Of a stretch of DNA of 64,000 nucleotides, positions 19,388 to 58,875 are shown one piece after another. The DNA is from Candidatus Poribacteria bacterium. Its GTDB lineage: Bacteria; Poribacteria; WGA-4E; WGA-3G. The DNA lies in contig OZ242029.1 of NCBI GenBank assembly GCA_965205015.1, positions 2,784,001 through 2,848,000 of the forward strand, written 5' to 3'. Numbering within the stretch: position 1 is the first letter of the stretch; every line of letters starts with the position of its first letter. A program made the position numbers and the translations under genes. The notes below the pieces were generated by a model. It saw nothing but the letters and a program-made list of their open reading frames with translations, did not search any database and had not been told where the DNA came from.

Positions 19388-19479
19388 GGAGAGATGCAGG
19401 AGTTGGTTGAACTGGCATGACTGGAAATCATGTGTGCTGTTTTGCAGTACCGTGGGTTCGAATCCCACTCTCTCCGCCA
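19388..19479 (+). tRNA. tRNA-Ser(GGA)
   Basis: Loop CTGGAAA, long variable arm, encoded CCA. Confidence 0.95.
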
Positions 19480-19544
19480 CTTTTGACGCAATTTGCTGTA
19501 GAGGCGAGGTCACCTCGCCCCTACTGTTGAAATAATTAACGCCT

Positions 19545-27063: not shown

Positions 27064-27228
27064 TATTCCTCGCGGATAGTCAGGGAAGTTGAGTGGAAAT
27101 GCCCTTCTGTCGTGTCCGCGGTCAACGATTTTGACTGCTACGTGGTCCCTCTATACGCGAGTCGCTATGGGACCCCGGCTAAAGACTGCAGCGCAAGCAT
27201 CGCGCCGGGCGGCTATACGGAGAGCCAC

Positions 27229-31084: not shown

Positions 31085-31247
31085 AATAGTTGTCGGTTAT
31101 CAGTTTCCAACGTAGAGGCGAGGTCACCTCGCCCTTACAGAGGTCTCTTTTTAACAATTCACCTCTCTGGAATACTCGAAGTTTGGGTAGATTATTACCC
31201 AAAACCCTCTTAACCGACTGAAACCTATAAAAGAAGGAGCTTCAAAC

Positions 31248-41937: not shown

Positions 41938-44880
41938 TTAATTGAGAATCTCATCCCAATCCCACAAGAAAATTGTGCCATCCATGGCAGTGCTGACGAG
42001 CGTTTTACCATCTGGTGAAAACGCTAACGTTGCAACTTGTTGCGTATGTCCATCAAGAACCGAGATCTGGTCTCCTGTTGTAACTTTCCACAATTGGATT
42101 GCACCGTAGCTGTGTCCATTAACAAGTACCGCACCATCCGGCGAAAATATCAACGGTTTGGCGTAACCCGTGAATGTGTTTCTACCTCGTCTGTGCCCTG
42201 TGCTAATTGAAAAAAGTTTATTACCGGTATCCACGTCCCATAAATGGACGTGACGATGCGTCCCGACAGCAAGCAAGGTCCCGTCTGGAGAAAATGCCAA
42301 GGCAGCAATATGACCCAAATTCTCGCGCCCCGTTGATTCTTCAAAAGCAGCTAAGGTTCCGCTAGTCACAACATCCCACATCTGGATTTTCCCGCGTTGT
42401 GTGCCACTGACGAGCCTTGTACCGTCTGGCGAAAATGTCAATGCAGAAACCCTCGGCATATTGCGAACATTAGTTTTCGGATCAGCGAGGCGGATATTCT
42501 GTTCATCGCCGGTTTCCGTATTCCACAAACGAATTTCACCGGAACCAGAAAATGCCACCATTTTGCCATCAGGAGAAAAAGTCAGTTCATCGGTTCCCTT
42601 ACTATACTGTAGGGTTATGAGTTCACGTCCCGTTCTTACATCCGTCAGGCGAATCAGATGGTCTGAACGCCAAGTCATCAGCGGGAAGCCGTTTGCTTCA
42701 AAGACTACAGCACCTTCTGCCCCTACACTAACGAGTTTCGTGCCATCAGGTGAAAACGCCAAGGTTGGGAACCAATCCCGATGTCCTGTAGATTGGATGG
42801 CGGACTTTTGCGAGGTTTTCACATCCCAAAGGGTAACTATGCCATTAAACGCCACACTTGCAAGTGTGGAACTATCCTCAAAGAAAGTCACCGCCTTCAT
42901 CGACTGTGTGTGTCCGGAGATAGGGTTATCTATCGGAGCACCAGTCTCCGTCTGCCAGAAATGGACCGTGCCATCCGTACTGCTGCTGGCAAGCGTTTGA
43001 CCATCGGGTGAAAACGCTAATGCGGTGATACCGTTGCGGTGACCGGTGAGCGTCACAAGCGGTTCACCTGTGGTGGTGTCCCACAACTGCACTGTTTTAT
43101 CGGTACTCCCACTGGCAAGCCTCTCTCCATCTGGAGAAAACGCTAATACGTTTGTCCAACCTGTATGTCCTTGAAGTGTGACCCATTCGTTCTTGTTGGT
43201 GGTGTCCCACAATCGCACTGTTTTATCGGTACTCCCACTGGCGAGGCGGGTGCCATCGGGTGAAAACGCCAACGCTAATATATTCGGCATAGACGATGAT
43301 TTGCGATGTGAAGGCTTACCAAGGGGTTGAATAGACAAATCTACATGTCCTCTAAGGGTGGATAACTTTTTACGGGTCTTCACATTCCACAGTTCAATCT
43401 TCCCGTCCTCCTTCCCGATTGCAATTTTATCGTGATCCATCGCGTAGACAACATCAAAACTAACATCCCTTGTAAATAATCCCTGACTAAATAGCCAACC
43501 GAATAGCCCAGTTTTGAGATACTTCGTATGCTCTCTGCCGGTCTCAACGTTCAGTTCGCTAATTGCATTTCCTGAGTTACTCAAACTGATAAGCGTTTTT
43601 CCATCTGAAGAGAACCGTAATACCGATGCAGCAGCATATAAATCCTTGAGCAACACTTCGCGTCCCGTCGGTACTTCCCACACTCGGATTTCCGTCTTCC
43701 CGGAATAACCACCGCTACTTGCAAGGAAACGCCCATCAAATGAAAAAGCGAGGCATTGAGATTTGCCAGCAAATAGATTTCTCTCTTTGCCCGTTTCTAC
43801 ATCGTAGAGCCAGATCCCGATATTACTACCGACTGCGAGTTGTGCGCCATCGGGTGAAAACTGAATTACGTTAGCGCCGCCTTTTCCCAAACGCGCTTTC
43901 GCCTTTTCAGGTAGTTTCCATTGCGTATAATTTATGCCAGTTTCATCCGATTCCGCAGCGGCAAATAGCATCAGTTCCTCATCAGGCTGCTGTTCAGAGA
44001 TATGACTCTTATTCGATGCAGTGGAAGCATTTCCGAATTGCGTCCGCACATCCGGTTTAGATTCGATATCCAGCACAACGGGTGCTTCGATAAGTTCAAC
44101 AGTCATTTCCGAAGGGGCATCGAAGCTGTAAGGCTTCTGGAAACGCGCGAAATATTGATTGCTTACCCCCAACATCAACAACACCACTGCTAACGTAGAA
44201 GTCGCAATTGCCCACGGTGCGAATGGTTTACTATTAGGTGGCGTAACCGGTTTCAGACGCGAAATCTCGCGCATGATATTCTCTGTCAGATTCGGTGTGA
44301 TCTGGAAATTCTCCAAAGCCTCTCTTATCATGGGTTCCTCCCTCTTTAAACGCTCTTGTGCGCGGCGCAGACGACTCCTAATTGTATTTGCCGACACACC
44401 CAGAAACTTGCCAATTTCCGCACTGGACATTTCACCGAAGTAACGCAGCGTTAGAATCGTGCGATCACTCTCTGGAAGTTTAGCGAGCAACTTTTTCACA
44501 GCTGCGCGTTGTGCTTCTATCGCTGTCCGTTCGTTTTCGGCAATGATATGCCCTGAATACGTCGCGCGCTCTAACTGAGCGATGCCTGTATCTTCAAGCG
44601 ACTGCATCCACAAACGCTTTTTACGCAGCCATGCAGTACATTGACGACTCGCTATCACATAGAGCCAACTCGCAAAGGACTGCGGTTCCTTCAGTGTTGA
44701 GAGTCTTTGATACGCTTTCAGGAACGTATCCTGCGTAATTTCCTCGGCAATGTGGAAATCCCCGATCTTCCGCCATACGAGGGCGTGAACGGGTTTTTGG
44801 TATTTCCTCACGAGCTGCGTGAAAGCGGTATCATTGCCGTCAAGCGTGCGGCGAATGAGTTCAACGTCACTATTTTTCAT
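41938..44880 (-). CDS. ECF sigma factor with TM helix and C-terminal WD40 domain (980 aa)
   Basis: Sigma regions 2 and 4 (AEEITQDTFLKAY, EIGKFLGVS.NTIRSRL.RA), hydrophobic segment, WD40 repeats; GGAGG before ATG 44880. Confidence 0.92.
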   Translation of the reverse strand: MKNSDVELIRRTLDGNDTAFTQLVRKYQKPVHALVWRKIGDFHIAEEITQDTFLKAYQRLSTLKEPQSFASWLYVIASRQCTAWLRKKRLWMQSLEDTGIAQLERATYSGHIIAENERTAIEAQRAAVKKLLAKLPESDRTILTLRYFGEMSSAEIGKFLGVSANTIRSRLRRAQERLKREEPMIREALENFQITPNLTENIMREISRLKPVTPPNSKPFAPWAIATSTLAVVLLMLGVSNQYFARFQKPYSFDAPSEMTVELIEAPVVLDIESKPDVRTQFGNASTASNKSHISEQQPDEELMLFAAAESDETGINYTQWKLPEKAKARLGKGGANVIQFSPDGAQLAVGSNIGIWLYDVETGKERNLFAGKSQCLAFSFDGRFLASSGGYSGKTEIRVWEVPTGREVLLKDLYAAASVLRFSSDGKTLISLSNSGNAISELNVETGREHTKYLKTGLFGWLFSQGLFTRDVSFDVVYAMDHDKIAIGKEDGKIELWNVKTRKKLSTLRGHVDLSIQPLGKPSHRKSSSMPNILALAFSPDGTRLASGSTDKTVRLWDTTNKNEWVTLQGHTGWTNVLAFSPDGERLASGSTDKTVQLWDTTTGEPLVTLTGHRNGITALAFSPDGQTLASSSTDGTVHFWQTETGAPIDNPISGHTQSMKAVTFFEDSSTLASVAFNGIVTLWDVKTSQKSAIQSTGHRDWFPTLAFSPDGTKLVSVGAEGAVVFEANGFPLMTWRSDHLIRLTDVRTGRELITLQYSKGTDELTFSPDGKMVAFSGSGEIRLWNTETGDEQNIRLADPKTNVRNMPRVSALTFSPDGTRLVSGTQRGKIQMWDVVTSGTLAAFEESTGRENLGHIAALAFSPDGTLLAVGTHRHVHLWDVDTGNKLFSISTGHRRGRNTFTGYAKPLIFSPDGAVLVNGHSYGAIQLWKVTTGDQISVLDGHTQQVATLAFSPDGKTLVSTAMDGTIFLWDWDEILN

Positions 44881-44933: not shown

Positions 44934-44961
44934 TGACGCGACTTAGGGGTACAACTGGTGC
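44934..44961 (-). promoter_or_regulatory. ECF-type promoter motif GCACC-N18-CGTCA
   Basis: One of five copies with identical spacing; lies upstream of the ECF-WD40 gene. Confidence 0.65.
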
Positions 44962-45083
44962 ATAATTCTGCAAAAAACACATACGCGTTTGGGAAAGAAG
45001 GATTCGTTTGGTTTTATCAATAGTGTACAATTCTAAGTTTGTGTAAATCTTAGGGCAATTTGTCAAGTGAATCAGAAACGAGC

Positions 45084-46937
45084 TTATTGCATCCGCCCCA
45101 TCTGCGCCATCATTTGGATCATCTGTATAAGCTGCTTGAAGTCGCCGAGTTTAAGGAGGAGTTTCGCACCAATGCTACTTTCCTGTCTTTTGGCGGAAAA
45201 ACTGATACTATAGTCCTCTGGTAGATTCATAAAGATCCCCGAAAGTAGTTGCAGTGCTGCATTATTCGGATCCATCTCCCCCAACATCGGCAAAGAATTT
45301 TTAGTCGTGATTGCTGGAGAAATCGCAATGAAAATATTGTTGTCCGTCCCTAATTGGTCAACGAGCTTCTGATAACTCGGGAAGTCAGAAAACTTCTCCT
45401 CGTTTCCGACTTTCCTATCAAGTGCCATTTGAATTGCTTCTGGACCCGTGCCCGTTGCGAAAAGGAGTTGCCCTTCGGTAAACCCATAATACCAGTGTAA
45501 TTCAGTGGGCATCAAACCAGCGATTTCCTCAGGGAATTCCTCGGGAAGTCTCGCGGTGAAATTAGGAAAAATGTAACTTTTAATTTCAACGCGGTTGTGC
45601 ATCATTGATGGACCTGCATAAATACCGCCTTCCTGGAGTTGTTCCAGAAACACCTCATCCATATAGGTTTTGGCACGTTGCGCATCTTTCAACTCATAGA
45701 TGAACAGAGAATCGGGTAACAAGCTACCCCTAAAGTTGAAAGAGACGCTCCACCGATCCACCAGAGATTCATGAAAATCTTTGATCTGCTCAAAGAGCAA
45801 ATCCCGCCGTGCTTCTTGTTCTGGCGTTTCTTGTGGAAAGGCGGCTAACAGGAGTTCGCTGAGTTCAACCTGCAGCTGCGGGCACCCCTGAAAGGCACCG
45901 TTCACAGATGCACGATTTGGCAGCTCGTCGAGAAAAGCCAATTCACCGGATACCTCTTCCAACAGTTTCAAAAATTCGCTATCGCTCCTGAGTTTTAGAA
46001 ACGGCTTGATTTGGAGATCAGTTCCCTCCACTTCAAGTCTCACACTGATAGATTGAAGCTTCTCAATGGACTCTCTATCTTTTTCAGGTATGTCTTCAGG
46101 TATGTCTTCAAAGAAGGATGCAATCGTTTTGGATGTCTCATCACCAGCCTTGAGAGTTTCTACGATTGATTCCAATTCCTCCTCAAGGGGACGATCGAAA
46201 GTAGCAATAATTCCCTCAATATCAATGCACACGCCTCCCTGATCGTCACCTGCCAAAATGTCGGCAAGGAAGGTGCTGTAATTTGCGTTCTGTGTGATAG
46301 TCGCTCCGGTTCCGTTATAGATATCAATAACGTTCTCACAAACCCCATGGGGCGTTGAAAAAACGAGGATGTTCTTCAAAATAACAAAACTCTGGTTACC
46401 TTCGGTTGCGTTCCAATAGGTTACGCCTTTATGTTCCGCGGGAACACTGCCTTTCGCTTCAATCATCTGTTTCATTGCCTCGGGATCTATTAGATGCGCA
46501 AGGGCGGAGAGATGCAATGGCTGCAAACTGGTAATAAAGACAGTGAAATCTCGGTTCACATCCAACCCAATTGCTTCAAAATCGGCTAAACTTTCAAACG
46601 CATCTCCGAAAATACGCTTCAAAATCTGCGTAGATACATTGGGAACCTCGATTTGTGGGGAAAGCTCCGCCATCATCGTATTAATTCTGTTATCCAGCTC
46701 AAGCAGGCTGGGGCAGTAGCTAACCCCCAATGCCCCTTTCGGAATTAGGCGCAGAACACTACTGTCTGGAACAGCAACTGGAGCACCTTGAGGTTTTTGA
46801 GAAGGCGTATCTATGGGTGTTGGTTCGGATACCTTAGATGAATCTGGCACGGCTTCTACCACATTTGAAGTGGCGAATAGAAGGGTTATCAGAGATATCG
46901 ACACGATGAAGCATGAAAGTAAACATTTCTTTAACAT
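45084..46937 (-). CDS. Secreted hypothetical protein
   Basis: AAGGAG plus ATG 46937; signal peptide MLKKCLLSCFIVSI... Confidence 0.8.
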   Translation of the reverse strand: MLKKCLLSCFIVSISLITLLFATSNVVEAVPDSSKVSEPTPIDTPSQKPQGAPVAVPDSSVLRLIPKGALGVSYCPSLLELDNRINTMMAELSPQIEVPNVSTQILKRIFGDAFESLADFEAIGLDVNRDFTVFITSLQPLHLSALAHLIDPEAMKQMIEAKGSVPAEHKGVTYWNATEGNQSFVILKNILVFSTPHGVCENVIDIYNGTGATITQNANYSTFLADILAGDDQGGVCIDIEGIIATFDRPLEEELESIVETLKAGDETSKTIASFFEDIPEDIPEKDRESIEKLQSISVRLEVEGTDLQIKPFLKLRSDSEFLKLLEEVSGELAFLDELPNRASVNGAFQGCPQLQVELSELLLAAFPQETPEQEARRDLLFEQIKDFHESLVDRWSVSFNFRGSLLPDSLFIYELKDAQRAKTYMDEVFLEQLQEGGIYAGPSMMHNRVEIKSYIFPNFTARLPEEFPEEIAGLMPTELHWYYGFTEGQLLFATGTGPEAIQMALDRKVGNEEKFSDFPSYQKLVDQLGTDNNIFIAISPAITTKNSLPMLGEMDPNNAALQLLSGIFMNLPEDYSISFSAKRQESSIGAKLLLKLGDFKQLIQMIQMMAQMGRMQ

Positions 46938-47039
46938 TGCTTTCTCCTTAGGCGTGTGAAACTTGTGATACCATGTCCCCGTTTTTGTCTTACTTGTCCC
47001 ATTTTTCCGATAAATTCCACTGTTTGTCAATGAAGACTT

Positions 47040-47155
47040 TATAGTAAGTCCCACAATTACGTGGACACTGGGGCGAGGTTAGAAACCTCGCCAGCGGGAT
47101 GCAGGATGGTGCTGCTACTCCCTGAGGTGTTAACTTATTTTTCGACTTTGCTATA
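47040..47155. mobile_element. MITE (TATAG...CTATA family) with REP-like cargo
   Basis: tatagtaagtc...gactttgctata ends; internal ggcgaggtt-aga-aacctcgcc. Confidence 0.75.
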
Positions 47156-47520: not shown

Positions 47521-48852
47521 TTATCTCAATGTAGCGTCTATAGAGATTCTCGCGAGGAAAGAATTGACTTTCCCTTCTCCACTGAACGAATTACCGGTGG
47601 CACCTAACTTAAAGCGCGTGCCTTCATCAAAACGGTGCGTGATCCTTCCGCCCTTACCGGGTACAATCCCTGATGCTGCGGTGAGTATAACCTGAGGCAT
47701 GCCGTCTGTTGAGAATTCGCTGTCGCTTGCAAACAGGATGAACGCACCGGCAGCCTCGGCACTCCCCATCCAGAGATCAATCGTGAGCATACCACCATCT
47801 TTAAACGCCGTCGCATCAATCTCAACAACGGTGTAATCTTGAGTGCCTGCTGTCGGTGTTCGGAAAATATTCAAGATATCCTGTGAAGGTTCTTCATCGT
47901 TGAGCACGACGCTTTTTGCCTGTGTGGAAAGAAACCTCGGTGTGTATTCCGATTGATCTGCCTTCGGTGCAAATCCATCACCCTTACGCGGGGTCATAGA
48001 TTTACCAACTTGTGTCCGCACATTCGGTTTTGATGCAAGATCCAGGACAATAGGAGTGTCAATAAGTTCCACCGTCATCTCCGATGGGGCGGCAAAATCG
48101 TAGGGCTGTTGGAAACGTGTTAAGTACTGACTGCTTGCTCCAAATGCCATTAAAACGAGGACGAGGGTTGAGGTAGCGAGTGCCCACGGCACGAACGGCT
48201 TACCACTGGGGGGTGTGGTGGGTTGGATGCGGGAAATCTCTTGCATGATTTTCTCGGTGAGATTCGCCCGAATCTGAAAGCCTTCCAGTGCTTCTCGGAT
48301 CATCGGTTCTGCCTTCTTTAAGCGGAGTCGCGCACGACGAAGCCGACTCTTAACAGTGCTCGCCGATACCCCCAAAAAACGGCTGATCTCTTCACACGTC
48401 ATCTCTCCAAAATAGTGGAGTGTGACGACGGTGCGTTCACTTTCCTGCAACCGGGCGAGCAATCTTTGGACGATGCCGCGCTGCGCCTCTACCGCAGCTT
48501 TTTCCTGCTCCTCGGCAATGTATTGGGAATACGTCACTCCTTCTATTAGTTCGATGTCCGTATCTTCCAACGATTGCGTCGGCATCCGTTTTTTTCTCAG
48601 CCACGCTTGGCATTGACGTGCGGCGATTCTATAAAGCCATCCTGCAAAGCGACTCGGATCCTTCAACGTTTCCAGTTTCTTGTAGACTCGCAGAAAAGTG
48701 TCCTGTGTAATCTCTTCCGCGACGTGGAAATCGCCAACTTTCCGCCATGCGAGCGCGTGGACTGGCTTTTGGTATTTTTTCACCAACTTCGCAAAGGCGT
48801 TTTCATCGCCTGTGAGACTGCGTTGAATTAGTTCTACATCGTCGTTCTTCAT
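47521..48852 (-). CDS. ECF sigma factor with TM helix and C-terminal domain shared with the SelN-like proteins (443 aa)
   Basis: Paralog of the 41938-44880 N-terminus; C-terminus SQDILNIFRTP...DYTVVEID.TAF..GG...FKLGATG...NSFLARIS. Confidence 0.9.
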   Translation of the reverse strand: MKNDDVELIQRSLTGDENAFAKLVKKYQKPVHALAWRKVGDFHVAEEITQDTFLRVYKKLETLKDPSRFAGWLYRIAARQCQAWLRKKRMPTQSLEDTDIELIEGVTYSQYIAEEQEKAAVEAQRGIVQRLLARLQESERTVVTLHYFGEMTCEEISRFLGVSASTVKSRLRRARLRLKKAEPMIREALEGFQIRANLTEKIMQEISRIQPTTPPSGKPFVPWALATSTLVLVLMAFGASSQYLTRFQQPYDFAAPSEMTVELIDTPIVLDLASKPNVRTQVGKSMTPRKGDGFAPKADQSEYTPRFLSTQAKSVVLNDEEPSQDILNIFRTPTAGTQDYTVVEIDATAFKDGGMLTIDLWMGSAEAAGAFILFASDSEFSTDGMPQVILTAASGIVPGKGGRITHRFDEGTRFKLGATGNSFSGEGKVNSFLARISIDATLR

Positions 48853-48960
48853 CTGTCCCCTCCAAAGAACTAAATTTGGAGAACCTTCAAGAATGATAAC
48901 GAGGCTGACAGGTTGGACGAAAATCCGTGGACATCCATCCAACCTGCTTATATCTTTGAA

Positions 48961-50946
48961 TCACTGGGCATCATAAATGAACCAGTTACCTTCCACTTTT
49001 CGCATCTTAACAGATACCTCCGAGGGATCTGCCATTGGCACTCTCAACCTGAAGTGGAATTCATCACCCACATACTCGCTGCCTAAGATCTCCATCTGAC
49101 GCAATATTTGACGCATCCGAGTACGCACATCCTCTGGCGCATCCTCAAAATCAACTTCAAATGTATGTCGGGCATCCCCTATAAGCATCGGATGTATTGT
49201 CTCTGCATCAAGGTTCTTAAATGCTTCCACGAAAGCGTTCATCACATCTTCCGCGGATTGATTTAAGTGCGCTGATGACACTTCTTTCCCATCCAATGCC
49301 TGATTCGGTTCAACAGAGATTTTCGCCACGAAGGCATTGACCTGCCCTTTCTTACTATGCCAATCACCGGTCGCCCCTAATTTAAAGTGATGCCCCCGGT
49401 CGAAAGGATAGATGATTTTCTTGGATTTACCCGGTGAGACTCCCCATGCCGAAGCAACCGCGTTCCGAGGTGCACCTTCTGTTGGGGGTTCGCTTTCGCC
49501 ATCAAACAGGTGGAACGAACCTGCAGCCTCTGCATGTCCGACGGAGATATTGATCGTAAGCACACCTCCATTTTCAAACGCCGTGGTATCAATTTTAATG
49601 ATAGTGTAATCTTGATAACCCGGTTCTGGTGTCCGAAAGATATTAAGGATCTCCTGTGAGGTTCGAACATCATTGAGTACAACCTTCAAACGACTCAATG
49701 CGGTATCCGAGTTGAGGGGCTCTGGTTCTGAAGTATCTTCACCGAATCCGGGAAGTTTTCCGTCTAAAGCTTCCTTGAGAAACGTTAGGTAACGTTGCCC
49801 CATGTTTGCTCCGAGAAGATCATTGACGGGCTGCCTGCCCATCAATTCAAGATCTGTTGAAAGAATCAAGGAATCTGACGGCGAACGCTTCTTCCACCCT
49901 TTCATGATTGCCTGTGCCAAAGGGGACTTTTTGTCGAATGGCTTGAATCCATGCTGGTGTCTCAATGCCATGAAAACTTTCTTATTAGCGGTGCGCTCCA
50001 ATTCGACATTCGACACCCAGGTATTGATAAAATTGTCATTCAAGAACTCAATGACTCGGTTGTTGGAGAGGACAACTGCCCTCAGGGCTTTACCGCTCCC
50101 TCAGCACGATTCATCCATCAATGGTCCATCTATAGAGATAGCGTGAATCGGCTTCTGTTGTGCGTGTGCCATCTCCAATACCTCATCTGGCGGCACCCAA
50201 TTAATTTGCTGTGATTTGTAGAAATTCGTTATCAGGGCACGTTCAGCGGTTTCTTGGGTAATCGCTTCTGCGAATTCGACGTTCTTCAGTAAATCTGGCC
50301 TTCCGGCACGAAGTTCCATTTGCGAACAGAAACCTGCATCTGTAATAGAGCTTCCGGGTCCGTATTTACTCCAGTTAACATCAAAGTTTACTGTGCCTTC
50401 AGGGACATACATCTTAAAGAAAGCGACCTTTTTTTGAATTCGATCAATTACAAGATGACCGGTAAACAGCGATGGAGTAAACCACCCATCCTTTAGTTTA
50501 AACTCCGCGTGAATCCGAAACACGATGTCGGCAAATGTATCGTTGTAAGCGCGCAGGCATGCCCACAAACCATAGGAATCGCCCGAGTTGATATGCATCT
50601 TCAAATTCGGATTGGGATGAAGTTGCCGTAGCAATTCTAATGCCCCGGTATTTTCAATCTGCCAGAGTTCGCCGATCGAAACCGCTTTGTCTGGAAGAAA
50701 GGCGCGGAAAACCGAGGCAGGATGCTGCTTCTCTGGTTCAGCAACGCGTAGATTTGCCAATGCCTCCCAATCTACATGGAAATTGGACAAGGTACTCACG
50801 ATTGGGGCGATGAAGCCTTTGACGGACATTTCAGATGCACCATCAAGATTAAGTGTAATTTTTTTATTCTGTGTCAAGTCCTCATTAGCGTTTAATTGTC
50901 CGCTTATCACAATCAGAGTGAGAAATCCAATCATTAGGGTTTTCAT
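48961..50946 (-). CDS. Selenoprotein N-like protein, copy 1 (Sec at TGA 50101-50103; 661 aa; signal peptide; extra C-terminal domain)
   Basis: ORFs 50101-51060 and 48961-50043 are in frame across a single TGA: GPLMDESC-U-GSGKALRAVVLSNNRVIEFLNDNFINTW; FRIHAEF, NFDVNW, QMEL and YLTFLKEAL motifs as in animal SELENON. Confidence 0.88.
50068..50083 (-). promoter_or_regulatory. Candidate bacterial SECIS hairpin
   Basis: GAGGGC-AGTT-GTCCTC starting 17 nt after the UGA. Confidence 0.6.
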
Positions 50947-51144
50947 TTTTACTTCTCCTTGTAATAGAATAACATTACTACGTAAACAACGTCTATCCCA
51001 AAAGTTGTTGCTCGCGTAGATTCTCATCTTTATGGTTTGGAGCGTTGAGGTCGAGCGCACACCTTAATCCTTAAAATTATCCAAACTTTAGTAATTTTAA
51101 TAACGGCAATTTTATCTTTCAGTCGGTTTGCCACGCGCATTCCT

Positions 51145-51954
51145 TTAGAGCCCTCTTAGGAGGGATACCCACCGTTCCCATACGGCTTTAGTGGCAGTTT
51201 TCTGTGCTTCGTTGGCATCTTCTGTCATACCGCGCATCAGGAAAGCGTGACCGACCCCTTCATAGATGACGGGTTCGTAGGTGATGTTTGCGGCATCCGC
51301 CGCGGCTTTAGTGGCATCAATTGTGGCATTGATACGATTGTCGTTCTCGGCGTAGAAGCCATACACCGGTGCTGATATTTTGGGGATATCTTCCGTTGAT
51401 GGGGCAGGACCGTAAAACACAAAACTAGCGGCTATTGTGGTGGAATGAACAGCGTAACTGAACGTTTGACCACCTCCCCAGCAGAATCCGGAGACTGCAA
51501 CCTTTTCATTGGTTTCAGGTAGATTTCGGACATATTTTTCGATGGCATCCAGGTCGGATGTGACTTGGGAGGGTGGGAGTTCGCTGATAGCCCATGGTAC
51601 GTCGTCCCTTGAGTCGAAACTTTCTGTGCCGCCACCGTCAGGTCCCATGCCGGAAAGCATATCTGGACAAATTGCGACAAACCCTTCGGCAGCGAGCGTG
51701 TCTGCGACGAGTCGTATCCAATTGGTGAGTCCGCGACCCTGGTGGATGACGATGATAGCCGTTGCGGGTTCTTTCACCGTTGGATAAACGATAAACGCAT
51801 TGACGATACGCGCATCGGAGGTCGTAACTTTCACCCTTTCGCTGTGTCGCGGGGATACGTCAAGTTGAGTTTTTATACTATCAGCCTCTGCATCGGCAAT
51901 GAACAATAAACCGGTGACAATGATACCTAACATAAGCGTGTGGGCTATCTGCAT
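51145..51954 (-). CDS. Secreted dienelactone hydrolase family protein
   Basis: GFCWGG nucleophile motif, FYG, END, YEGVGHAF; signal peptide. Confidence 0.9.
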   Translation of the reverse strand: MQIAHTLMLGIIVTGLLFIADAEADSIKTQLDVSPRHSERVKVTTSDARIVNAFIVYPTVKEPATAIIVIHQGRGLTNWIRLVADTLAAEGFVAICPDMLSGMGPDGGGTESFDSRDDVPWAISELPPSQVTSDLDAIEKYVRNLPETNEKVAVSGFCWGGGQTFSYAVHSTTIAASFVFYGPAPSTEDIPKISAPVYGFYAENDNRINATIDATKAAADAANITYEPVIYEGVGHAFLMRGMTEDANEAQKTATKAVWERWVSLLRGL

Positions 51955-52208
51955 AGTTTTTTCCTTATTTTTCCTTTGTACTGTGAATAATGGACTCTAC
52001 TACCTTTTAGATATTCTTTAGGACTTACGCGATAATTTAATATCTCAGCATTAAGCCCATTCCCCGATTTATCAATAATCGTCTGATCTGTAACCTCATC
52101 AAACGTCAGGTAAAAAACGAGTCCCTCATCCAAACTCGCGTTGGCGGAAATCGTCCCCAGGAGAATAAGGGGTCCCCAAAAAGCTGCACCGATAAATCCT
52201 CGTATCAT
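51945..52208 (-). pseudogene. Truncated LamG-domain gene
   Basis: First ~57 aa match the 54208 and 56264 paralogs (LDEGLVFYLTFD...IIDKSGNGL.AEIL), then similarity stops. Confidence 0.8.
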
Positions 52209-52280
52209 GTTTTCTTTTCCTCCTATAGAGTCATTTGAGTTTTCTAAAGCTTGTCACACAAATCTCGTGTCGATATATAA

Positions 52281-52308
52281 TGACGCGGAGGATTGGAAAA
52301 ACGGTTGC
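52281..52308 (-). promoter_or_regulatory. ECF-type promoter motif GCAAC-N18-CGTCA
   Basis: Preceded by TTTTGCAGAATTA, as are the copies at 44934, 55101 and 57155. Confidence 0.65.
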
Positions 52309-52401
52309 TTAATTCTGCAAAAAATAGAGAAAATATGATACGGGAAATGGATTTGGTTTGTTCATAGACTAAATCTGAATATGAAGCGCGTTGGATCCGC
52401 G

Positions 52402-54063
52402 TTAATTTTCGTCCTGCCCTTTCGACGCAGACTCCACGGATATTGTCGCGAGAAAAGCATTGGTACCTCCCTTCTTACTGAACCCATCACCGGTAGCTCC
52501 CAACCGAAAGGATTGACCTCGCTCAAAGATATGCGTGATGCTCTCTGTTCCACCGGATGGAATACTCCACGCTGAAGCGAGGGCATTCTGAGGTACCCCC
52601 TCTGTTGGCAGTTTCCTGTTGCCAGCAAACAAATCAAACGAACCGGCAGCTTCAGCGTACCCGACGGAAACATCAATCGTAAGCACACCCCCATTTTCAA
52701 ACGCTGTCGCATCAATTTCAACGACAGTATAATCCCGAAAGCCCGCCTCTGGTGTCCGAAAAATATTCAGTACCTCCTGTGAGGTCCGAACATCGTTGAG
52801 TACAACTTTCAAGTTACTCAATACAGTATCTGAGTTGAGGGATTCTGGTTCTGAAGTATCTTCACCCAATCCTGGCTGTTTTCCCGCTAAGGATTCTTGG
52901 AGAAACGTTAAGTAATGCCTTGTTGTGTTTCCTCCAACGAGATGAAGTTTATTGGCGGGTTGCCTACCCATCACTTCAAACTGTGGCGATATGATCAAAC
53001 AATCCACTGGAGAATGTTTTTTCCAGCCTTTCATGATTGCCTGTGCTAAGGCATGGGTTGTATCAAATGTTTTGGATTCTCGCTCGCGTCTCTTCGCAAT
53101 CGGGTCTCGTAAACTCGGTACCCGTCCCAATTCGCAATTCGGCACCCATGTGTTGACGAAATTTTCGTTCAAGTATTTTATGATCTGATCGTCGGAGAGG
53201 ACAACTGCCCTCAAGGCTTTGCCACTCCCTCAGCACGATTCATCAGCAAGCGGTCCCATTATTGAGAGGACGTGAACCGGCTTCTCTTGTGCTGGTGCCA
53301 TTTTCAACGCATCTTCCAAAGAAACCCAGTTAATTTCCTGCGATTTGTAGAAACGCAATATCAGTTTACGTTCAGCCGCTTCTTGAGTGATGGATTCTAT
53401 AAACTCGGTGTCTGATACAATTTCTTGGATCTCAGCATGAAGTTCTATTTTTGGACAAAAACCGACATCTATAGTGTTAGTGCTGTTTCGTCCAACATCA
53501 AAATTCAGTATGCCTTCAGGGACGTACATCTTGAAGGCAGTAACCTTTTCCTTAATTCGATCAATAACAAGATACCCAGCGAATTGAGACGGAGTAAATC
53601 GACCATCTCTTAGGATGAATTCTGCATGGATACGGAACACAATTTCAGCAAATCTATCATTGTACGCGCGCAAAGATGCCCACAAGCCGCGAGAATCCCC
53701 TGAATTTATGCTAATATCCAGATTTGGCTTCGGATGAAGTTGTCGCAATAATTCCAGCGCACTTCCTTCCTCGATCTGCCAGAGATCCCCAACAGAAACC
53801 GCTTCGGATGGCAGAAAAGCCCGAAAAACCGAGGTAGGATACCGCTTCTCGGGTTCAGCAACCCGTAGATTCGCCAATTCATCCCACTCCACATGAAAGT
53901 TATATTGCGTGTATTCAATCGGGGCAATGACGCCTTTCACTAACACTGCAGATGTACCATCAAGGTTAAGTGTGATTTTTTTCTTCTCTGTCAAGTCTTC
54001 ATTGGCGTTTAATTGTCCATTTATCATCACCAGAATGAGAAGCCCAATCGTTAAAGTTTTCAT
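52402..54063 (-). CDS. Selenoprotein N-like protein, copy 2 (Sec at TGA 53230-53232; 553 aa; signal peptide)
   Basis: In frame across TGA: GPLADESC-U-GSGKALRAVVLSDDQIIKYLNENFVNTW; FRIHAEF, FTPSQFAG, YLTFLQESL. Confidence 0.88.
53197..53212 (-). promoter_or_regulatory. Candidate bacterial SECIS hairpin
   Basis: GAGGGC-AGTT-GTCCTC starting 17 nt after the UGA. Confidence 0.6.
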
Positions 54064-54207
54064 TTTACAAATTCCTTAAAATTAACTACGGAAAATACGA
54101 TGTCTAAGTATCCATCTTACAAGAATTCGTTGTTCGCGTAGTATTACTATCAATATACAATAACTCGGGTTATATAAAGTAAAGCATTCTCACTTGCCAG
54201 CTACTCG

Positions 54208-55029
54208 CTAAGGGGTAACCGTCCTCTTTTTGACATCCGCCCAAGTCGTTGCGACTTTATCACTTGGTGAAACAGCGAGGAAATCCCCTACCATTGCCTG
54301 TTTAATTTCCCCATCGCTGAGTGCACGTTGCCAGACAGCGGTTTCATCAATAGAGCCGTTAGCGAATGCGTACTGCAATCTATTTTTTGCGCATCCGATC
54401 CGGAGTTTCGCGTTATTACCCCCAAAGAAATTGAATGTCTTTTTTTCCGAACCTATGACTTTACCGTCTAAATAAATCTTCACGGTTTTTCCGTCGTAGC
54501 TGCCAGCAACGTGGTACCATTTTCGGACACCCATTTTGTGTGAAACTGCGAATTCATGCCGGTCGGTAATCCCGCGTTTATCTCGCGACCCTAAAAACAA
54601 TACAATCTCTGGTCCGTCACCGATATCGGAGCTACCTATACCGTAGGTTCCAGACCAACCGACACCCGAATGGCACCCTTTATCAAGCCAATGCAACATC
54701 CTTTTACCTTTCCATGTTTCTTGATAGTAGATCCATGTCATCATTGTTATTTCGTTTGTAATTTTCAGTTTCTCTTGAGAAGGGATACTGACGCAATCCT
54801 GACCATCATCTGTGATATGAATGGCATTCCCGTATTTGCCCTTCACAATTTGGGTATTCTCGTGGAGTTCTGCGTCAAGACCATTCTTGGATTTGTCAAC
54901 AATTGTCTGATCTTTAACGTTATCAAACGTCAGATAAAAAACCAATTCCTCATCAAGTCCTGCGTTGGTAGAAATTGTCATTAACAGCATGACAGCACCC
55001 GAAAAAGCTGCAATAAATAACCGCGTCAC
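54208..55029 (-). CDS. Secreted LamG/concanavalin-like domain protein
   Basis: WYHVAGSYDG..KIYLDG, GSIDE.AVW.RALS; C-terminal VSPSDKVATTWADVK. Confidence 0.9.
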   Translation of the reverse strand: MTRLFIAAFSGAVMLLMTISTNAGLDEELVFYLTFDNVKDQTIVDKSKNGLDAELHENTQIVKGKYGNAIHITDDGQDCVSIPSQEKLKITNEITMMTWIYYQETWKGKRMLHWLDKGCHSGVGWSGTYGIGSSDIGDGPEIVLFLGSRDKRGITDRHEFAVSHKMGVRKWYHVAGSYDGKTVKIYLDGKVIGSEKKTFNFFGGNNAKLRIGCAKNRLQYAFANGSIDETAVWQRALSDGEIKQAMVGDFLAVSPSDKVATTWADVKKRTVTP

Positions 55030-55100
55030 GTTTTCTTTCCTCCTGTAGCGTCTGTTAAGTTTTCCAAAATTTGTTCCATAGACATGGTTTTGATATATAA

Positions 55101-55128
55101 TGACGCGGGTAACAGGCAGAACGGTTGC
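55101..55128 (-). promoter_or_regulatory. ECF-type promoter motif GCAAC-N18-CGTCA
   Basis: Same boxes as the other copies, different spacer. Confidence 0.65.
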
Positions 55129-55198
55129 TTAATTCTGCAAAAAAAGAACAAAATGTGATACACAGCGCAGCAAACGCGCATAACACAGCAGTTTCATA

Positions 55199-56221
55199 CT
55201 ATTTCTCTTTTACTTTTCCCCATATTGTGCTGAGCAGTTGGGGTTGCGGTGAGACAGGCAACACATATACAGGGTCGAACCAATCCCCTCCAAAATTCGC
55301 CTTAAAAACCCGTCCAATATGTGTCAACTGTGTCCGAGTGTCACTGGGGATATCAAGTTTGAAAATGTGTAGACGTCCCTTAATTTTCTGTGTATAAAGG
55401 ACCTCTTCCCCATCTGGCGACAGCACTGGATATTGTGCTCTGGGCCCGGCTTCATTGAGAAGTTCTCGGAGATCCGTCCCGTCGCGGTTTACAATATAGA
55501 TTGTTTCTTTATCCAGCCATACGGGTGGGAAACGATCCCCTGGCAAAAGGCGCGGGAACGGGTTCTGATTCCAAGAAAAAGCGAGTTTGCTCCCCGTAGT
55601 CGACCAAAACGGTTGATTTTGCCAAGCCGTTGCCGTCCTCGGTAGGAGGTGTTTTTGTCTTCGTGTGTGGAGGTCAATTAGGGCAATTCGGCAGGTATCT
55701 CCAATATAAGACACATACGCTATTTTCGTCCCATCGGGTGACCACGTCGGATATCTGCCCTCCACGACACGCGCCTCTTTTTGTTCACCCAAGGTTGCAA
55801 CGTGGATATGGAACCTGACACCGTCCCAATTCAGGTGTGTGTAAGCGATCTGTTTGCCATCGGGTGACCACGTCGGAGAATCCCTATAAGATTTTCTTTT
55901 TCTTGTGAACACGGGACGGACATTGGAGCCGCTGGGATCCATCAGATATAAGTCCCGGATGCCGCCCTCGCGATCGGAAACGAAAAGAATCTGTTCACCA
56001 GTCGGGGACCAGACAGGGTTTAGGTCATTTGCGCGATGTTGCGTTAAGTTTATCTGTTCACTCCCGTCCGGATTCATCATGTAGACCTCGTAATTGCCGT
56101 CTCGTGAAGAGGTGAACAGAATTTTGGCGGTTGTGGGTGCTGTTGCGAAAACGAAGTTAACATTTACGTCCAGTATCAACACGTTCAATATAGCAAAAAC
56201 GAACAACCGTATTGTTTTCAT
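55199..56221 (-). CDS. Secreted TolB-like (PD40) beta-propeller protein
   Basis: F.S.RDGN.EVY.MN.DGS, P.WSPDG repeats; C-terminal PVSPQPQLLSTIWGKVK. Confidence 0.88.
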   Translation of the reverse strand: MKTIRLFVFAILNVLILDVNVNFVFATAPTTAKILFTSSRDGNYEVYMMNPDGSEQINLTQHRANDLNPVWSPTGEQILFVSDREGGIRDLYLMDPSGSNVRPVFTRKRKSYRDSPTWSPDGKQIAYTHLNWDGVRFHIHVATLGEQKEARVVEGRYPTWSPDGTKIAYVSYIGDTCRIALIDLHTRRQKHLLPRTATAWQNQPFWSTTGSKLAFSWNQNPFPRLLPGDRFPPVWLDKETIYIVNRDGTDLRELLNEAGPRAQYPVLSPDGEEVLYTQKIKGRLHIFKLDIPSDTRTQLTHIGRVFKANFGGDWFDPVYVLPVSPQPQLLSTIWGKVKEK

Positions 56222-56263
56222 TTTATGTGCCTTTATGAGGGATTCTGATTTTGTAGGGAGCCG

Positions 56264-57082
56264 TTAGGGAGCGACCGCTCTTCTTTTCATATCCGCCCAA
56301 GTCGTCGCGGCTTTATCGCTCGGCGAAATAGCGAGCATGTTTCCTGTCATCGCTTGTTTGATTTCATCATCACTGAGGGCGCGTTGCCACACCGCAGCTT
56401 CATCAATAGAGCCGTTCGTGAATGTAAGATGGGGTACGTCTTTTGCACATCCGATCCGAACGTCTGCTTCGTTGTCCCCAAAGAAATCGAATTTTTTCTT
56501 TTCTTTTGCTATGACTTTACCATCTACATAGATTTTCATGGTTTCGCCATCGTAACTTCCGACAACATGATGCCATTTTTTTTCGTCCATTTCATGCGGA
56601 GTTCTGAACTCCTGTCGATCCCACTTCCCTTCTATGTGTGATCCCAAAAACAAAAAGATTTCTGGTCCGTTACCGGCATCAGTACCAGCAATACCATAAC
56701 AGTGCGCCCAACCAACCGGAACAACGAAATGACAGTCTTTTTCCAGCCAATGCGCCTTCTCGTTGTTCCATGTTTCTGCAGAATAAATCCATGCCATCAT
56801 TGTTATCTCACCGATAACTTTCAATTTCTCTTGGGCAGGGATATTGACGCAATCTCCGCTTTGACCTTTAAGGCGAATTGCATCTCCATATTTACCCTTG
56901 ACAATATCAACACGCTCAAGTATTTCTGCGTCAAGACCGTTGCCAGATTCATCAATAATCGTCTGATTTTTAACGTTATCAAACGTCAGATAAAAAACGA
57001 GGTCTTCATCCAAACCCGCGTTGGCAAAGGTCACCAACAACGTAACGACACTCAAAAAAGCAGCAATAAATGCCCGTAACAT
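56264..57082 (-). CDS. Secreted LamG/concanavalin-like domain protein
   Basis: Paralog of 54208-55029; GGAGG before ATG 57082. Confidence 0.9.
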   Translation of the reverse strand: MLRAFIAAFLSVVTLLVTFANAGLDEDLVFYLTFDNVKNQTIIDESGNGLDAEILERVDIVKGKYGDAIRLKGQSGDCVNIPAQEKLKVIGEITMMAWIYSAETWNNEKAHWLEKDCHFVVPVGWAHCYGIAGTDAGNGPEIFLFLGSHIEGKWDRQEFRTPHEMDEKKWHHVVGSYDGETMKIYVDGKVIAKEKKKFDFFGDNEADVRIGCAKDVPHLTFTNGSIDEAAVWQRALSDDEIKQAMTGNMLAISPSDKAATTWADMKRRAVAP

Positions 57083-57154
57083 GTTTTCTTTTCCTCCTAT
57101 AGCGTCATTTGAATCTTCCAAAATTTGTCACACAAATCTCGTGTCGATATATAA

Positions 57155-57182
57155 TGACGCGGAGGATCGGAAAAACGGTTGC
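57155..57182 (-). promoter_or_regulatory. ECF-type promoter motif GCAAC-N18-CGTCA
   Basis: Near-identical to the 52281 copy. Confidence 0.65.
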
Positions 57183-57339
57183 CTAATTCTGCAAAAAATT
57201 AGCAAATTTAGACATGGCTGTTGATAATTAGGGGTAAGGACGATCCATTGTCTTATGAATGAATTTCGATTTTTGAGTTTGCTTTACAGAAACGTAGATA
57301 GATAGGCGCGCGTTGACAAATAGGTTAAAATGATATGGG

Positions 57340-58875
57340 TTATTTTTCAAATGGGGGGACGACAGAGACACGCGCCAAAAAAGCATTGGAAGTGCTCTTT
57401 TGGTTGTTTGCCCTTGTAGCGACCAACTTAAAATGCTGTTTGCCCTCCCTGAAGTGGTGAAAGATATGTCCTGTATTGCCGGGCAAAACGTTCCATGTCC
57501 CAGTCAGTGCTTTATCTGTCGTTTTGTTTGTCAGAATTTTCGCATCGGCATCAAACAATTCAAACGTTCCTGCTGCCGCCCCTGCTCCGACCTGTATCTC
57601 AATGTGGAGCACGCCGCGTTCAAAAGGGGTGGTATCAATCTCCACGACCGTGTAATCTGGCGTATCGGTGTCGGATGTGTTGAAAACATGCAAAATCTCC
57701 ATCAACTCCGTCCCTAAGCTGATCGGGTTTCGATCTAATTTTGAGGCGTTCCCTACACGAGCGCGTTTTCCTTCAAACGCATCCACGGAATGCTGCAGCA
57801 CCGATAGGTATGCTTGCGCGTGATTCCTGTAAGGCAGTGCCATCTCCGGTTGATGCATAATGACTTCCGCGTCGGGGGTCAGTGCCAGAATATCCACAGA
57901 GTCGGTGTAATGGTGTTTCATCTTTTGAGCGACGAGACTCACCCCTTCGCCTTCCGCGCCACCTATCAGTTCTGGCAATTCCCGGAGGAGCACCCACGTA
58001 TTGACGAACTTTTCGTTGAGCGTTTTTATGACTTCAGGATTGGAGAGCGGACCCGCCCTCAAATTTTTGCCATTCGCTCAGCACGATTCATCATCTAAAC
58101 ACCCCCAGACAAGGATGGCATGGATCGGCCGATGGGTCGCTTTTGCCTGTGCGACTGCCTCATCAATCGGCAGCCAGTTGATCTCCGCGAACTTGTAGAA
58201 CTTCAGTTCCAATGCACGATGTGCTTCTTCCGTTGTGATAGTAGCGTCCCACGTGATCTCGTTTTGGTCGGTCTCATCTATAGCGAGGAGTTCCATACGC
58301 GGCACGAAAACCATATCCGCTCCCCCAGAGGCGTTGAGGTCAACGTTCGTGTTGCGCGCCGGCAAGGCTAATGAAAACGCGCGAATCGTTCCGCTTTCTA
58401 CATTCACCACTACTTTCCCTGCAAATTGTGATGGAATAAACCTGGCTTCGGACTCCCACTCATCGTTTTTTTCTTGCCACTCCTGATGAGCAGCGGAGTT
58501 CAACGCGAATTCTGCATGAATTCGGAAAGCAATTTCTGCGTAGTCTGAGGCACGTGCCCGTAAGCAGGCAAAGGCACCTTCCTCACCGTACCCTAAATCA
58601 GCCGTTGCTCCCGGATGAAACTGACGCAGGAAGGAAACAACACTGTTCGCATCAAGTTTATAGACATCCCCTACCGTCACAGCAGATGGTGGCAGGAACG
58701 CAGTGAAAGCATCAGTCCGGTATTCCTTAACAGGTTGGTTTGGTGACAGATCGAAAAGTTCAACGTGTTCTGGCGATGCCTTGTGCATACGAAAGGTAGA
58801 ATCCGCAATCGGTTCCCAATGTGCATGCACCTGTAGACGTGTTGAACTATTTAGGACATTACAAAGGTTTATCAC
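57340..58875 (-). CDS. Selenoprotein N-like protein, copy 3 (Sec at TGA 58078-58080; 511 aa; no obvious signal peptide)
   Basis: In frame across TGA: IHAILVWGCLDDESC-U-ANGKNLRAGPLSNPEVIKTLNEKFVNTWVLLRELPEL; GGAGG before GTG 58875. Confidence 0.88.
58043..58060 (-). promoter_or_regulatory. Candidate bacterial SECIS hairpin
   Basis: GAGGGCG-GGTC-CGCTCTC starting 17 nt after the UGA. Confidence 0.65.

Follow-up and report, generated by a model that had tools for sequence, protein, structure and literature searches.

A beta-sandwich domain shared by an ECF sigma factor and neighboring SelN-like selenoproteins in Poribacteria

In a 64-kb stretch of DNA from a Candidatus Poribacteria bacterium, a sponge symbiont (the window), an extracytoplasmic function (ECF) sigma factor carries, beyond a single hydrophobic helix, the same domain of ~125 residues that forms the C-terminal module of three SelN-like selenoproteins encoded beside it. 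We call the sigma factor ECF2 and the selenoproteins Sel1, Sel2 and Sel3; all results presented here are computational. The analysis establishes the homology of the four domain copies, the architecture of the proteins that carry them, the conserved order of their genes in related genomes, the single origin of the sigma-borne copies, and an ECF-type promoter motif together with its positions. The model that we tentatively favor, at just short of even confidence, is that this fused transmembrane sigma factor autoregulates a regulon of SelN-like, LamG and PD40 genes through a sensor that was captured from the end-domain of the regulon's products and pairs homotypically with those products or with itself, release of the sigma factor probably being proteolytic.

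One domain on a sigma factor and three selenoproteins

Compared by BLASTP, the C-terminal part of ECF2 (residues 345-470 of the open reading frame) is 54% identical to Sel1 (E 6e-40), 57% to Sel2 (E 8e-41) and 42% to Sel3 (E 3e-20), and 34 columns are invariant in the alignment of the four copies. A hidden Markov model (HMM) built from these copies and run against 1208 six-frame pieces of the window recovers exactly the same four (E 9e-74 to 3e-58) and no fifth at E<=10. All four align across the whole profile of a wider family, whose motif reads D-x-T-x-F-x-x-G-G ... S-F-D-L-F ... F-x-L-G-A-x-G-N-W-F-S-x-x-G-x-x-N. The AlphaFold2 model of the ECF2 copy, built on a 48-row alignment, is an all-beta sandwich of nine strands (pLDDT 95, pTM 0.88). 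In a model of full-length Sel2, the linker in front of the domain (residues 402-416) falls below a pLDDT of 50, and the domain is therefore best viewed as an independently folded, flexibly tethered module.

Neither the four window copies nor three distant members match a Pfam model at E<=1, no NCBIfam model matches the domain at that threshold either, searches of the PDB with domain profiles gave nothing above chance level, and the ECF2 copy was placed in the Atlas among unnamed clusters only, at 0.89, under the Atlas bar of 0.9. By Foldseek, the model resembles the collagen-binding/PPC domains of ColG and ColH, PliG, GOLD, CBM6, calpain C2-like domains and the C-terminal claudin-binding domain of enterotoxin, with TM-scores of ~0.5-0.66 and identities of 7-21% (best values: 3jqw, TMt 0.65 with an rmsd of 3.3 A over 120 columns; 5sv5, 0.54/0.66; 4dzg, 0.55/0.63); against viral models it found generic jelly rolls only. 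These proteins appear to have the jelly-roll fold in common with the domain, with no family-model match, a likeness of fold class that does not imply kinship.

A profile search of 1.84 billion representative sequences returned 328 representative clusters at E<=1e-3, of which 207 remain at <=1e-10 and 33 at <=1e-30; partner domains and copy positions were scored in the best 150 of the 328. A Pfam partner is present in 29 of these 150, namely BlaR1/M56 in nine, caspase in six and Lcl_C in two, with single cases of an ECF sigma factor, an S9 peptidase with PD40, TIR, TPR, CsgG/FlgO, VHL, TonB_C, S8, dockerin, WG repeats and others. No Pfam partner was found in 121, and many of these partner-less representatives are fragments of SelN-like proteins that begin after the TGA or short proteins whose N-terminus contains a hydrophobic segment; no Pfam model matched the domain itself in the 150 at 1e-4. 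The domain ends within 15 residues of the protein C-terminus in 97 of 133 complete copies and is internal in 36, and 14 of the 150 representatives carry two or three copies. The wider family is thus a promiscuous module across bacteria, and its size and range (BlaR1-like sensors, caspases, peptidases and TIR proteins) merit a family model of its own. A literature search that covered few subscription journals found no description of this domain or of bacterial SelN-like selenoproteins, and PMC7474598, which deals with animal SelN, does not mention bacteria.

ECF2 matches the Pfam models Sigma70_r2 (E 1.6e-15), r4_2 (1.9e-15) and Sigma70_ECF (1.4e-07) and the NCBIfam model TIGR02937 (97.8 bits, cut-off 42.9), with no Pfam match to sigma regions 3 and 1; having regions 2 and 4 and lacking 1.1 and 3, it is an ECF (group 4) sigma-70 factor. 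A linker of ~36 residues joins region 4 to the helix. Neither Pfam nor NCBIfam recognizes an anti-sigma domain in this interval, and no separate anti-sigma-like gene adjoins ECF2 among the window's open reading frames searched with Pfam. About 200 residues of ECF2 follow the hydrophobic helix, and from this topology we infer that the domain lies on the outer side of the membrane.

ECF1, a paralogue encoded in the same window, is 66% identical to ECF2 through the sigma regions, linker, helix and juxtamembrane segment and unrelated beyond, where ECF1 has WD40 repeats and ECF2 the beta-sandwich. Six more paralogues in related loci have the same sigma-helix-juxtamembrane chassis with other outer parts. 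Members of this ECF1-like family, found in loci L009, L011, L014, L016 and L017 as well as in the window, bear outer domains of WD40 repeats, BNR-like propeller repeats and other kinds. The juxtamembrane segment common to the paralogues hints at a common processing step. Among 18 ECF2 proteins (the window and 17 loci), mean pairwise identity of the outer domain is 0.75, equal to that of the transmembrane and juxtamembrane parts.

The architecture had been anticipated in an earlier reading of the same DNA, which we refer to as the original prediction. It placed one domain on the three selenoproteins and the ECF sigma factor, with boundaries that agree with ours to within a few codons, and put the ECF gene directly downstream of the first selenoprotein gene, where it is. 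Its guess that the domain is beta-rich accords with the nine-strand model, and its failure to assign a family is matched by the Pfam, NCBIfam and PDB sequence searches. The one-component layout that it proposed is also what we see: sigma2/sigma4, one hydrophobic helix and the domain beyond it, in a single polypeptide.

Gene linkage, origin and a promoter motif

One scan of species-representative genomes yielded 17 related loci, 16 in metagenome-assembled genomes titled Poribacteria and one titled 'uncultured bacterium'. In every one of these 17, a domain-bearing SelN-like gene is followed directly, on the same strand, by the ECF2 orthologue, across a gap of ~40-110 nt with a GGAGG ribosome-binding site; the gap between Sel1 and ECF2 in the window is 108 nt. 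Each locus has one to four SelN-like paralogues upstream of ECF2, amid LamG, PD40/TolB-like and WD40-like genes in varying order. Among the matches listed for the ECF2 domain, 117 of 120 are sigma fusions of 440-458 residues with 61-100% identity, the named ones coming from Candidatus Poribacteria.

A midpoint-rooted tree of 58 domain copies from the 17 loci and the window, plus 13 hand-picked from the 150 representatives, groups the 18 ECF copies in one clade (support 100/99) within a 62-row clade of poribacterial type (100/100), apart from nine distant copies. Sel3-type copies form a clade of their own (100/100), and branching within the 62-row clade is mostly unresolved. Because the 18 ECF copies are one clade inside the SelN-type copies, the tree indicates that an ancestor of ECF2 captured the domain once, and because the SelN-fused copies are deeper and more diverse, capture probably ran from SelN-type protein to sigma factor. 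The locus would then be a clear case of sensor origin, in which a modular chassis of sigma factor and transmembrane helix took up the end-domain of a neighboring gene's product.

Four intergenic regions of the window have TTTTTTGCAGAATTA-n-GCAaC-N-GCGTCAyTAT in common. Across 331,461 nt (the 17 loci and part of the window), a scan for TGCAGAATTAnGCAnC-N15-19-GCGTCA that tolerated up to three mismatches in one box and up to one in the other gave 42 matches, all of them on the strand of the genes, and the opposite strand gave none; 50 shuffles, used as the null, averaged 0.58 matches and reached at most 3. The gene that follows is SelN-like in 17 cases, LamG in 13, PD40 in six, an ECF1-like sigma gene in five and DUF3352-like in one. 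Two types can be told apart by the -35 box, which is TGCACCAGTT before the ECF1-like sigma genes (type B, five of five) and GCAACCGTT in the remaining motifs. The sigma factors also differ at residue 165 of the sigma4 recognition helix, which is fixed as S in ECF2 orthologues and is N in the ECF1-like paralogues.

In 12 of 18 cases, a type A motif immediately precedes the SelN-like neighbor of ECF2; in two others, the window among them, it stands one or two genes farther upstream on the same strand. Taken together, a GCAAC...GCGTCA motif lies ahead of the ECF2-containing operon in 14 of 18. The cluster shows no sigma-70 promoter signal (27 predicted versus 19.2 in shuffles) or terminator signal (17 versus 14.6) that rises above shuffle level and would separate its genes. 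The motif puts ECF2 and the SelN-like gene in a single transcription unit. ECF sigma factors usually autoregulate their own operon (PMC7826278), and by this logic ECF2 is the likely reader of the type A promoters, with the SelN-like, LamG and PD40 genes as its regulon.

Predicted pairing and possible modes of sensing

Pairing between the domains is supported in silico. A complex of the Sel1 and ECF2 domains, predicted with a separate alignment for each chain, scored 0.64 (runs of 0.64, 0.63 and 0.66) against 0.00 for the best control, with at least 94% of contacts agreeing between runs and a partner pLDDT of at least 80. Of 80 solved complexes, 58 attain that mark, as do 2 of 110 mismatched pairs, a guide that is rough here because our own alignments were used. 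As the domain has no solved relative by sequence, the score is unlikely to come from structures that the predictor had memorized. Pseudo-symmetry marks the predicted interface, to which each chain contributes the same alignment columns: the I-L-N-I strand, the strand around G53 and the C-terminal V-N-x-F strand. Among the residues involved are L17, G53, A55, N120 and F122, all conserved across the two clades, and the ECF-specific W51. The modeled surface is likely to be one for homotypic pairing, with no demonstrated preference for the heterodimer. The original prediction had offered direct binding of the sigma factor's outer domain to the selenoproteins as one of two options; the controlled prediction lends in-silico support to binding as such, and a preference for the selenoprotein partner is not indicated by the model.

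A column comparison of 18 ECF, 34 SelN-type, 6 Sel3-type and 111 distant copies speaks to the other option, sensing of the same ligand. Polar or aromatic positions conserved across the family (S60, D62, W/Y84, D85, N111, W112, S114 and N120) suggest a ligand site. The ECF clade instead has A60, I62, S84, G85 and S112 and has gained W51. Four of its changes remove family-wide residues (D62 to I, W/Y84 to S, D85 to G and W112 to S), the replacements being 0.61-1.0 conserved within the clade, and the four lost residues lie outside the listed predicted interface. Sensing of a common ligand would mean that the domain docks SelN-like enzymes on an envelope or host-matrix component and that the sigma copy binds the same component, so that the substrate switches the enzymes on, much as RsgI anti-sigma factors detect polysaccharide with CBM-type modules. 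Such a role would suit a fold resembling binding modules (the collagen-binding domains of ColG and ColH, PPC, PliG, CBM6 and the claudin-binding domain of enterotoxin, TM 0.50-0.66), a family that occupies the sensor position in BlaR1/M56 proteins (9 of 150 representatives) and sits on secreted peptidases, and the conserved positions themselves; the linkage and promoter evidence would serve it equally. The structural matches, however, are to generic jelly rolls at the low identities and TM-scores given above, and with four family-wide positions replaced, the ECF copies are unlikely to recognize at this site what the other copies bind there. We therefore consider this explanation unlikely, and the corresponding branch of the original prediction is weakened.

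In the pairing model that we favor, ECF2 would consist of cytoplasmic sigma2/sigma4, one membrane helix, a juxtamembrane segment and an outer beta-sandwich. The outer domain would derive from a single copying event, in an ancestor within Poribacteria, of the end module of neighboring SelN-like selenoproteins. This module would be a homotypic association domain, of which the sigma copy retains the pairing surface and has lost the family-conserved residues. The ECF2 sensor could then pair with the domain of exported SelN-like proteins, or with itself when those are engaged elsewhere, and its state of pairing would govern whether the sigma factor is let go from the membrane, most likely through regulated proteolysis of the kind seen in other fused sigma/anti-sigma proteins. 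Once freed, the sigma factor would start transcription at the type A promoters that precede the LamG, PD40 and SelN-like genes and its own operon; feedback would presumably run from the exported products through the sensor to their genes.

A more specific version, possible if on the doubtful side, makes ECF2 a product-sensing sigma factor, whose ligand-site-degenerate copy of the selenoprotein oligomerization module would join and leave periplasmic SelN-like oligomers and so gate release. If so, ECF2 would monitor a product of its regulon by pairing between paralogous domains. According to PMC7474598, SelN of animals alternates between an oligomeric and a monomeric form, and sponges possess SelN (PMC3473315); product sensing by ECF2 would give this switch a bacterial, genetically tractable counterpart in symbionts of SelN-bearing sponges.

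Several observations weigh against the pairing model. First, the complex prediction is also passed by near relatives of a genuine partner, so that a domain that merely homodimerizes would score as a heterodimer. Second, the type A motif was not found for the ECF2-adjacent copy in L009 and L016, lies ~7.9 kb upstream in L012, and L010 is truncated. Third, the only grounds for giving the type A motif to ECF2, and not to the ECF1-like factors, are the rule of autoregulation and a single helix residue. Fourth, the cytoplasmic linker of ECF2 is too short for a classical anti-sigma domain. Finally, Sel3 lacks a signal peptide, so that the beta-sandwich is not restricted to the periplasm. The best 10-mer hydropathy at the Sel3 N-terminus is 1.17, as against 2.9-3.0 in Sel1 and Sel2, whose N-termini look by hydropathy like cleavable signal peptides. 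Not all three selenoproteins are thus evidently exported; in the original prediction they all were, which fits the first two copies and appears not to fit the third.

It could also be that no signaling link exists. A general dimerization or scaffold module may have been acquired from a neighboring gene, with an ECF2 homodimer that answers an unrelated cue or is constitutively processed, and the adjacency would reflect local duplication and co-transcription. A promiscuous family of 328 clusters, with caspases, M56, TIR, TonB_C, S8/S9 and dockerin among the best 150, is what one might expect of such a module; the ECF1-like paralogues put unrelated outer domains on the same chassis; and the pseudo-symmetry of the predicted interface is what a homodimer would give. 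Yet adjacency is kept in 17 of 17 species-level genomes in which other cluster genes have been rearranged, the ECF copies are one clade under constraint, and the promoter motif puts ECF2 in the transcription unit of the SelN-like gene. We regard this explanation as doubtful. The original prediction would have been refuted by a promiscuous module with no ECF/SelN linkage; promiscuity across bacteria is indeed found, but the linkage holds in Poribacteria.

Two further ideas can be set aside more readily. In the first, the SelN-like Cys-selenocysteine (CU) oxidoreductases would oxidize or reduce the sensor domain of the sigma factor. The neighbors are thioredoxin-like CU selenoproteins, and animal SelN works by redox exchange with its partners (PMC8148124). 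No Cys, however, occurs in the periplasmic part of ECF2 in any of the 17 orthologues scored (L001, which falls outside this pattern, has one Cys in its domain), and Cys is present in just one of 58 copies of the beta-sandwich. A thiol relay is thus highly improbable, a disulfide relay onto the ECF2 sensor is close to refuted, and the redox-dependent sigma activation raised in the original prediction is unlikely to proceed via thiols. In the second, the domain would be a C-terminal sorting or anchoring signal like the C-terminal domain of type IX secretion substrates. That 97 of 133 complete copies end near the C-terminus would agree, but the 36 internal copies, the 14 proteins with two or three copies, the absence of a sorting-domain match in Pfam or NCBIfam at E<=1, and a copy on a sigma factor, whose N-terminus must remain cytoplasmic, all argue otherwise. 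We rejected this idea, which is barely credible, because of the internal and multiple copies and the sigma-factor context.

ECF2 fits the established class of ECF sigma factors that carry regulatory extensions, as a variant with a new outer domain. In that class, as PMC8999054 describes it, the fused factor IutY is released by Prc and RseP, SCO4117 has a carbohydrate-binding outer domain and ECF57 bears WD40 repeats. Like IutY (ECF243), SCO4117 (ECF52) and ECF57, ECF2 combines sigma2/sigma4, a helix and an extracytoplasmic domain in one polypeptide, and the WD40-type extension of ECF1 recalls that of ECF57. Unlike these factors, ECF2 has as its outer domain an uncatalogued beta-sandwich apparently copied from the products of adjacent genes. 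It also differs from the IutY type in having no recognizable anti-sigma domain and too short a linker for one, and proteolytic release, which PMC8999054 documents for IutY, is only proposed for ECF2.

By analogy of design, the closest system appears to be RsgI/SigI of Clostridium thermocellum. According to PMC10328401, PMC6852018 and PMC4711584, its outer sensor modules are like those of the regulated secreted proteins, as for ECF2; the relay comprises a conserved periplasmic segment and intramembrane proteolysis; and one genome has several paralogous sensors with different outer modules. In that system, however, the sigma and anti-sigma factors are separate, the ligand is a polysaccharide and the sigma factor is of SigI type, whereas ECF2 is fused. 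In contrast with RsgI/SigI, the loss of family-wide residues from the sigma copy points to pairing with the proteins and not to binding of their ligand. Proteins of the BlaR1/MecR1 type (M56), which have the domain after the protease part in the nine representatives noted above, differ from ECF2 in that their output is a metalloprotease acting on a repressor, and no selenoprotein link was seen for them.

Selenoprotein genes and other features of the window

SelN causes human myopathies, and its biochemical role is nevertheless poorly understood. Bacterial selenocysteine-containing relatives in a compact regulon with LamG proteins, a TolB-like protein and a dedicated sigma factor may offer a context for guessing the partners and substrates of SelN. 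Our label 'SelN-like' reflects the CU dyad and a presumed similarity to animal SelN, including the SCUG form and the likeness of the flanking residues, which we take to be shared.

Sel1, Sel2 and Sel3 lie on the minus strand (Table 1). Translation table 11 breaks all three at a TGA codon, and each becomes one continuous protein once TGA is read as selenocysteine (U). SC-U-G/A occurs in all three, just ahead of a conserved stretch. In the window and the 17 loci, all 40 of the 40 homologous [S/A]-C-x-[G/A] sites have TGA as the codon (27 of 27 with a stricter pattern). A hairpin of 6-7 bp lies 18 nt downstream of the TGA in all three genes (GAGGGC-AGUU-GUCCUC, with an altered stem in Sel3). It is compatible with a bacterial selenocysteine insertion sequence (SECIS), as a weak candidate: 62-nt pieces containing it have ordinary folding z-scores (-0.4 to -1.1), and the stretch also codes for conserved protein. 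Rfam at the gathering score found only tRNAs and a signal recognition particle (SRP) RNA in the window, with no SECIS match, and no tRNA-Sec lies within the window.

The Sel1 reading frame spans 48961-51060, with a likely start at 50946. Pfam, NCBIfam and the PDB show no match to the Sel proteins; PDB sequence searches with Sel2 alone, with the profile of the four domain copies and with 30- and 48-row profiles brought up only designed repeats or matches at chance level. In the AlphaFold2 model of full-length Sel2 (pLDDT 83.7), an alpha/beta region surrounds the CU dyad; Foldseek with this model returned look-alikes of the C-terminal domain only and no thioredoxin match for the SelN core. Like Sel1-3, animal SelN (SEPN1/SELENON) has a CU dyad, which lies in a thioredoxin-like region (PMC8148124). 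Sel1 and Sel2 differ from it in having a signal peptide in place of a type II anchor, no EF-hand (no Pfam match at E<=0.01 in the Sel proteins) and an added C-terminal beta-sandwich. The Sel3-type protein begins at the mature domain and may be cytoplasmic while retaining selenocysteine and the end-domain. Relatives without selenocysteine also occur: P0276, a fourth SelN-like paralogue with the end-domain, encoded outside the window, has Gly at the site (EAC-G-ASGK), P0343 has CC and no end-domain, and P0300 has lost both residues.

Table 1. Coordinates of the features discussed, in window positions
Feature	Position	Strand	Basis
ECF2: 443-residue ECF sigma factor with one transmembrane helix and an extracytoplasmic part	47521..48852	-	Pfam Sigma70_r2, r4_2, Sigma70_ECF; identical protein P0154
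ECF2 sigma region 2	48586..48786	-	Pfam PF04542, ORF residues 53-119
ECF2 sigma region 4	48313..48474	-	Pfam PF08281/PF04545, ORF residues 157-210
ECF2 single hydrophobic (transmembrane) segment	48136..48198	-	sole 19-mer with Kyte-Doolittle >=1.6, residues 219-239
ECF2 juxtamembrane segment, candidate cleavage or relay module, common to ECF1-like paralogues	47983..48135	-	ECF1/ECF2 identity ends here
Domain copy, ECF2	47524..47925	-	BLASTP, HMM, AlphaFold2
Domain copy, Sel1	49300..49695	-	HMM positions 1-132
Domain copy, Sel2	52405..52830	-	BLASTP, HMM
Domain copy, Sel3, most divergent	57343..57720	-	BLASTP, HMM
Sel1, SelN-like: signal peptide, core with CU dyad, beta-sandwich, extra tail	48961..50946	-	TGA=U translation, hydropathy
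Sel1 in-frame TGA (selenocysteine) in SCUGS	50101..50103	-	TGA=U translation
Candidate bacterial SECIS hairpin, 18 nt past Sel1 TGA	50068..50083	-	folding; sequence kept in loci
Sel2, SelN-like, 553 residues	52402..54063	-	TGA=U translation
Sel2 in-frame TGA (selenocysteine)	53230..53232	-	TGA=U translation, homologous-site comparison
Hairpin past Sel2 TGA	53197..53212	-	folding
Sel3, divergent SelN-like, N-terminus without signal-peptide-like segment	57340..58875	-	TGA=U translation, hydropathy
Sel3 in-frame TGA (selenocysteine) in SCUAN	58078..58080	-	TGA=U translation, homologous-site comparison
Hairpin past Sel3 TGA; stem changed yet still pairing	58045..58060	-	folding
Type A motif upstream of LamG2-PD40	57155..57193	-	motif scan
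Type A motif upstream of LamG1-Sel2	55101..55139	-	motif scan
Type A motif upstream of LamG remnant-DLH-Sel1-ECF2	52281..52319	-	motif scan
Type B variant upstream of ECF1	44934..44972	-	motif scan
LamG2, exported concanavalin-A-like/LamG protein, predicted regulon member	56264..57121	-	Pfam Laminin_G_3; N-terminal hydrophobic segment
PD40/TolB-like beta-propeller protein, predicted regulon member	55199..56221	-	Pfam PD40, NCBIfam TolB propeller
LamG1, predicted regulon member	54208..55029	-	Pfam Laminin_G_3
Dienelactone hydrolase (DLH) protein, between promoter and Sel1	51145..51954	-	Pfam DLH
DUF3352-like exported protein downstream of ECF2	45084..47054	-	weak Pfam DUF3352 match, below cut-off
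ECF1: paralogous sigma-transmembrane protein with WD40-repeat extracytoplasmic part	41938..44880	-	Pfam, NCBIfam, BLASTP

Within the cluster, a tail of ~110 residues follows the beta-sandwich of Sel1 (48964-49290) and matches no family at E<=0.01; the same tail is also present on SelN-like copies in L002, L003, L004, L006, L007, L009, L014 and L017. The intergenic RNA between Sel1 and ECF2 (48853-48960) forms a strong hairpin (-36.9 kcal/mol, z -4.0, equaled by 0 of 200 shuffles), and a second, small hairpin there base-pairs with ECF2's GGAGG ribosome-binding site. This arrangement, which the closest loci also conserve, could serve to control processing or translation. An 87-residue N-terminal remnant of a LamG gene (51945-52208) keeps its type A promoter and is followed by the DLH gene, which has no counterpart in the 17 related loci and therefore looks like a window-specific insertion into the LamG gene. 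A DUF3352-like gene lies downstream of ECF2 in six of the 17 loci, and in L004 a motif-like site precedes it.

Elsewhere in the window, an open reading frame of 1303 residues (38011-41922) has no Pfam match. A gene of IS605 OrfB/TnpB type with a Cas12f-like TNB domain (16946-18157) lies in a cluster (16639-19812) with four tRNA-Ser, tRNA-Arg, tRNA-Ala and a large SRP RNA (19548-19812). A set of genes at 27112-31973 resembles a partner-switching system, with a HAMP/PAS histidine kinase, a fusion of response regulator and SpoIIE phosphatase, and an RsbW-like HATPase_c_2 protein. The first part of the window (1-13376) contains many 'eukaryote-like' genes typical of sponge symbionts, encoding two FGE-sulfatase proteins and cohesin, LRR, VIT/VWA, WD40, TPR and NHL proteins.

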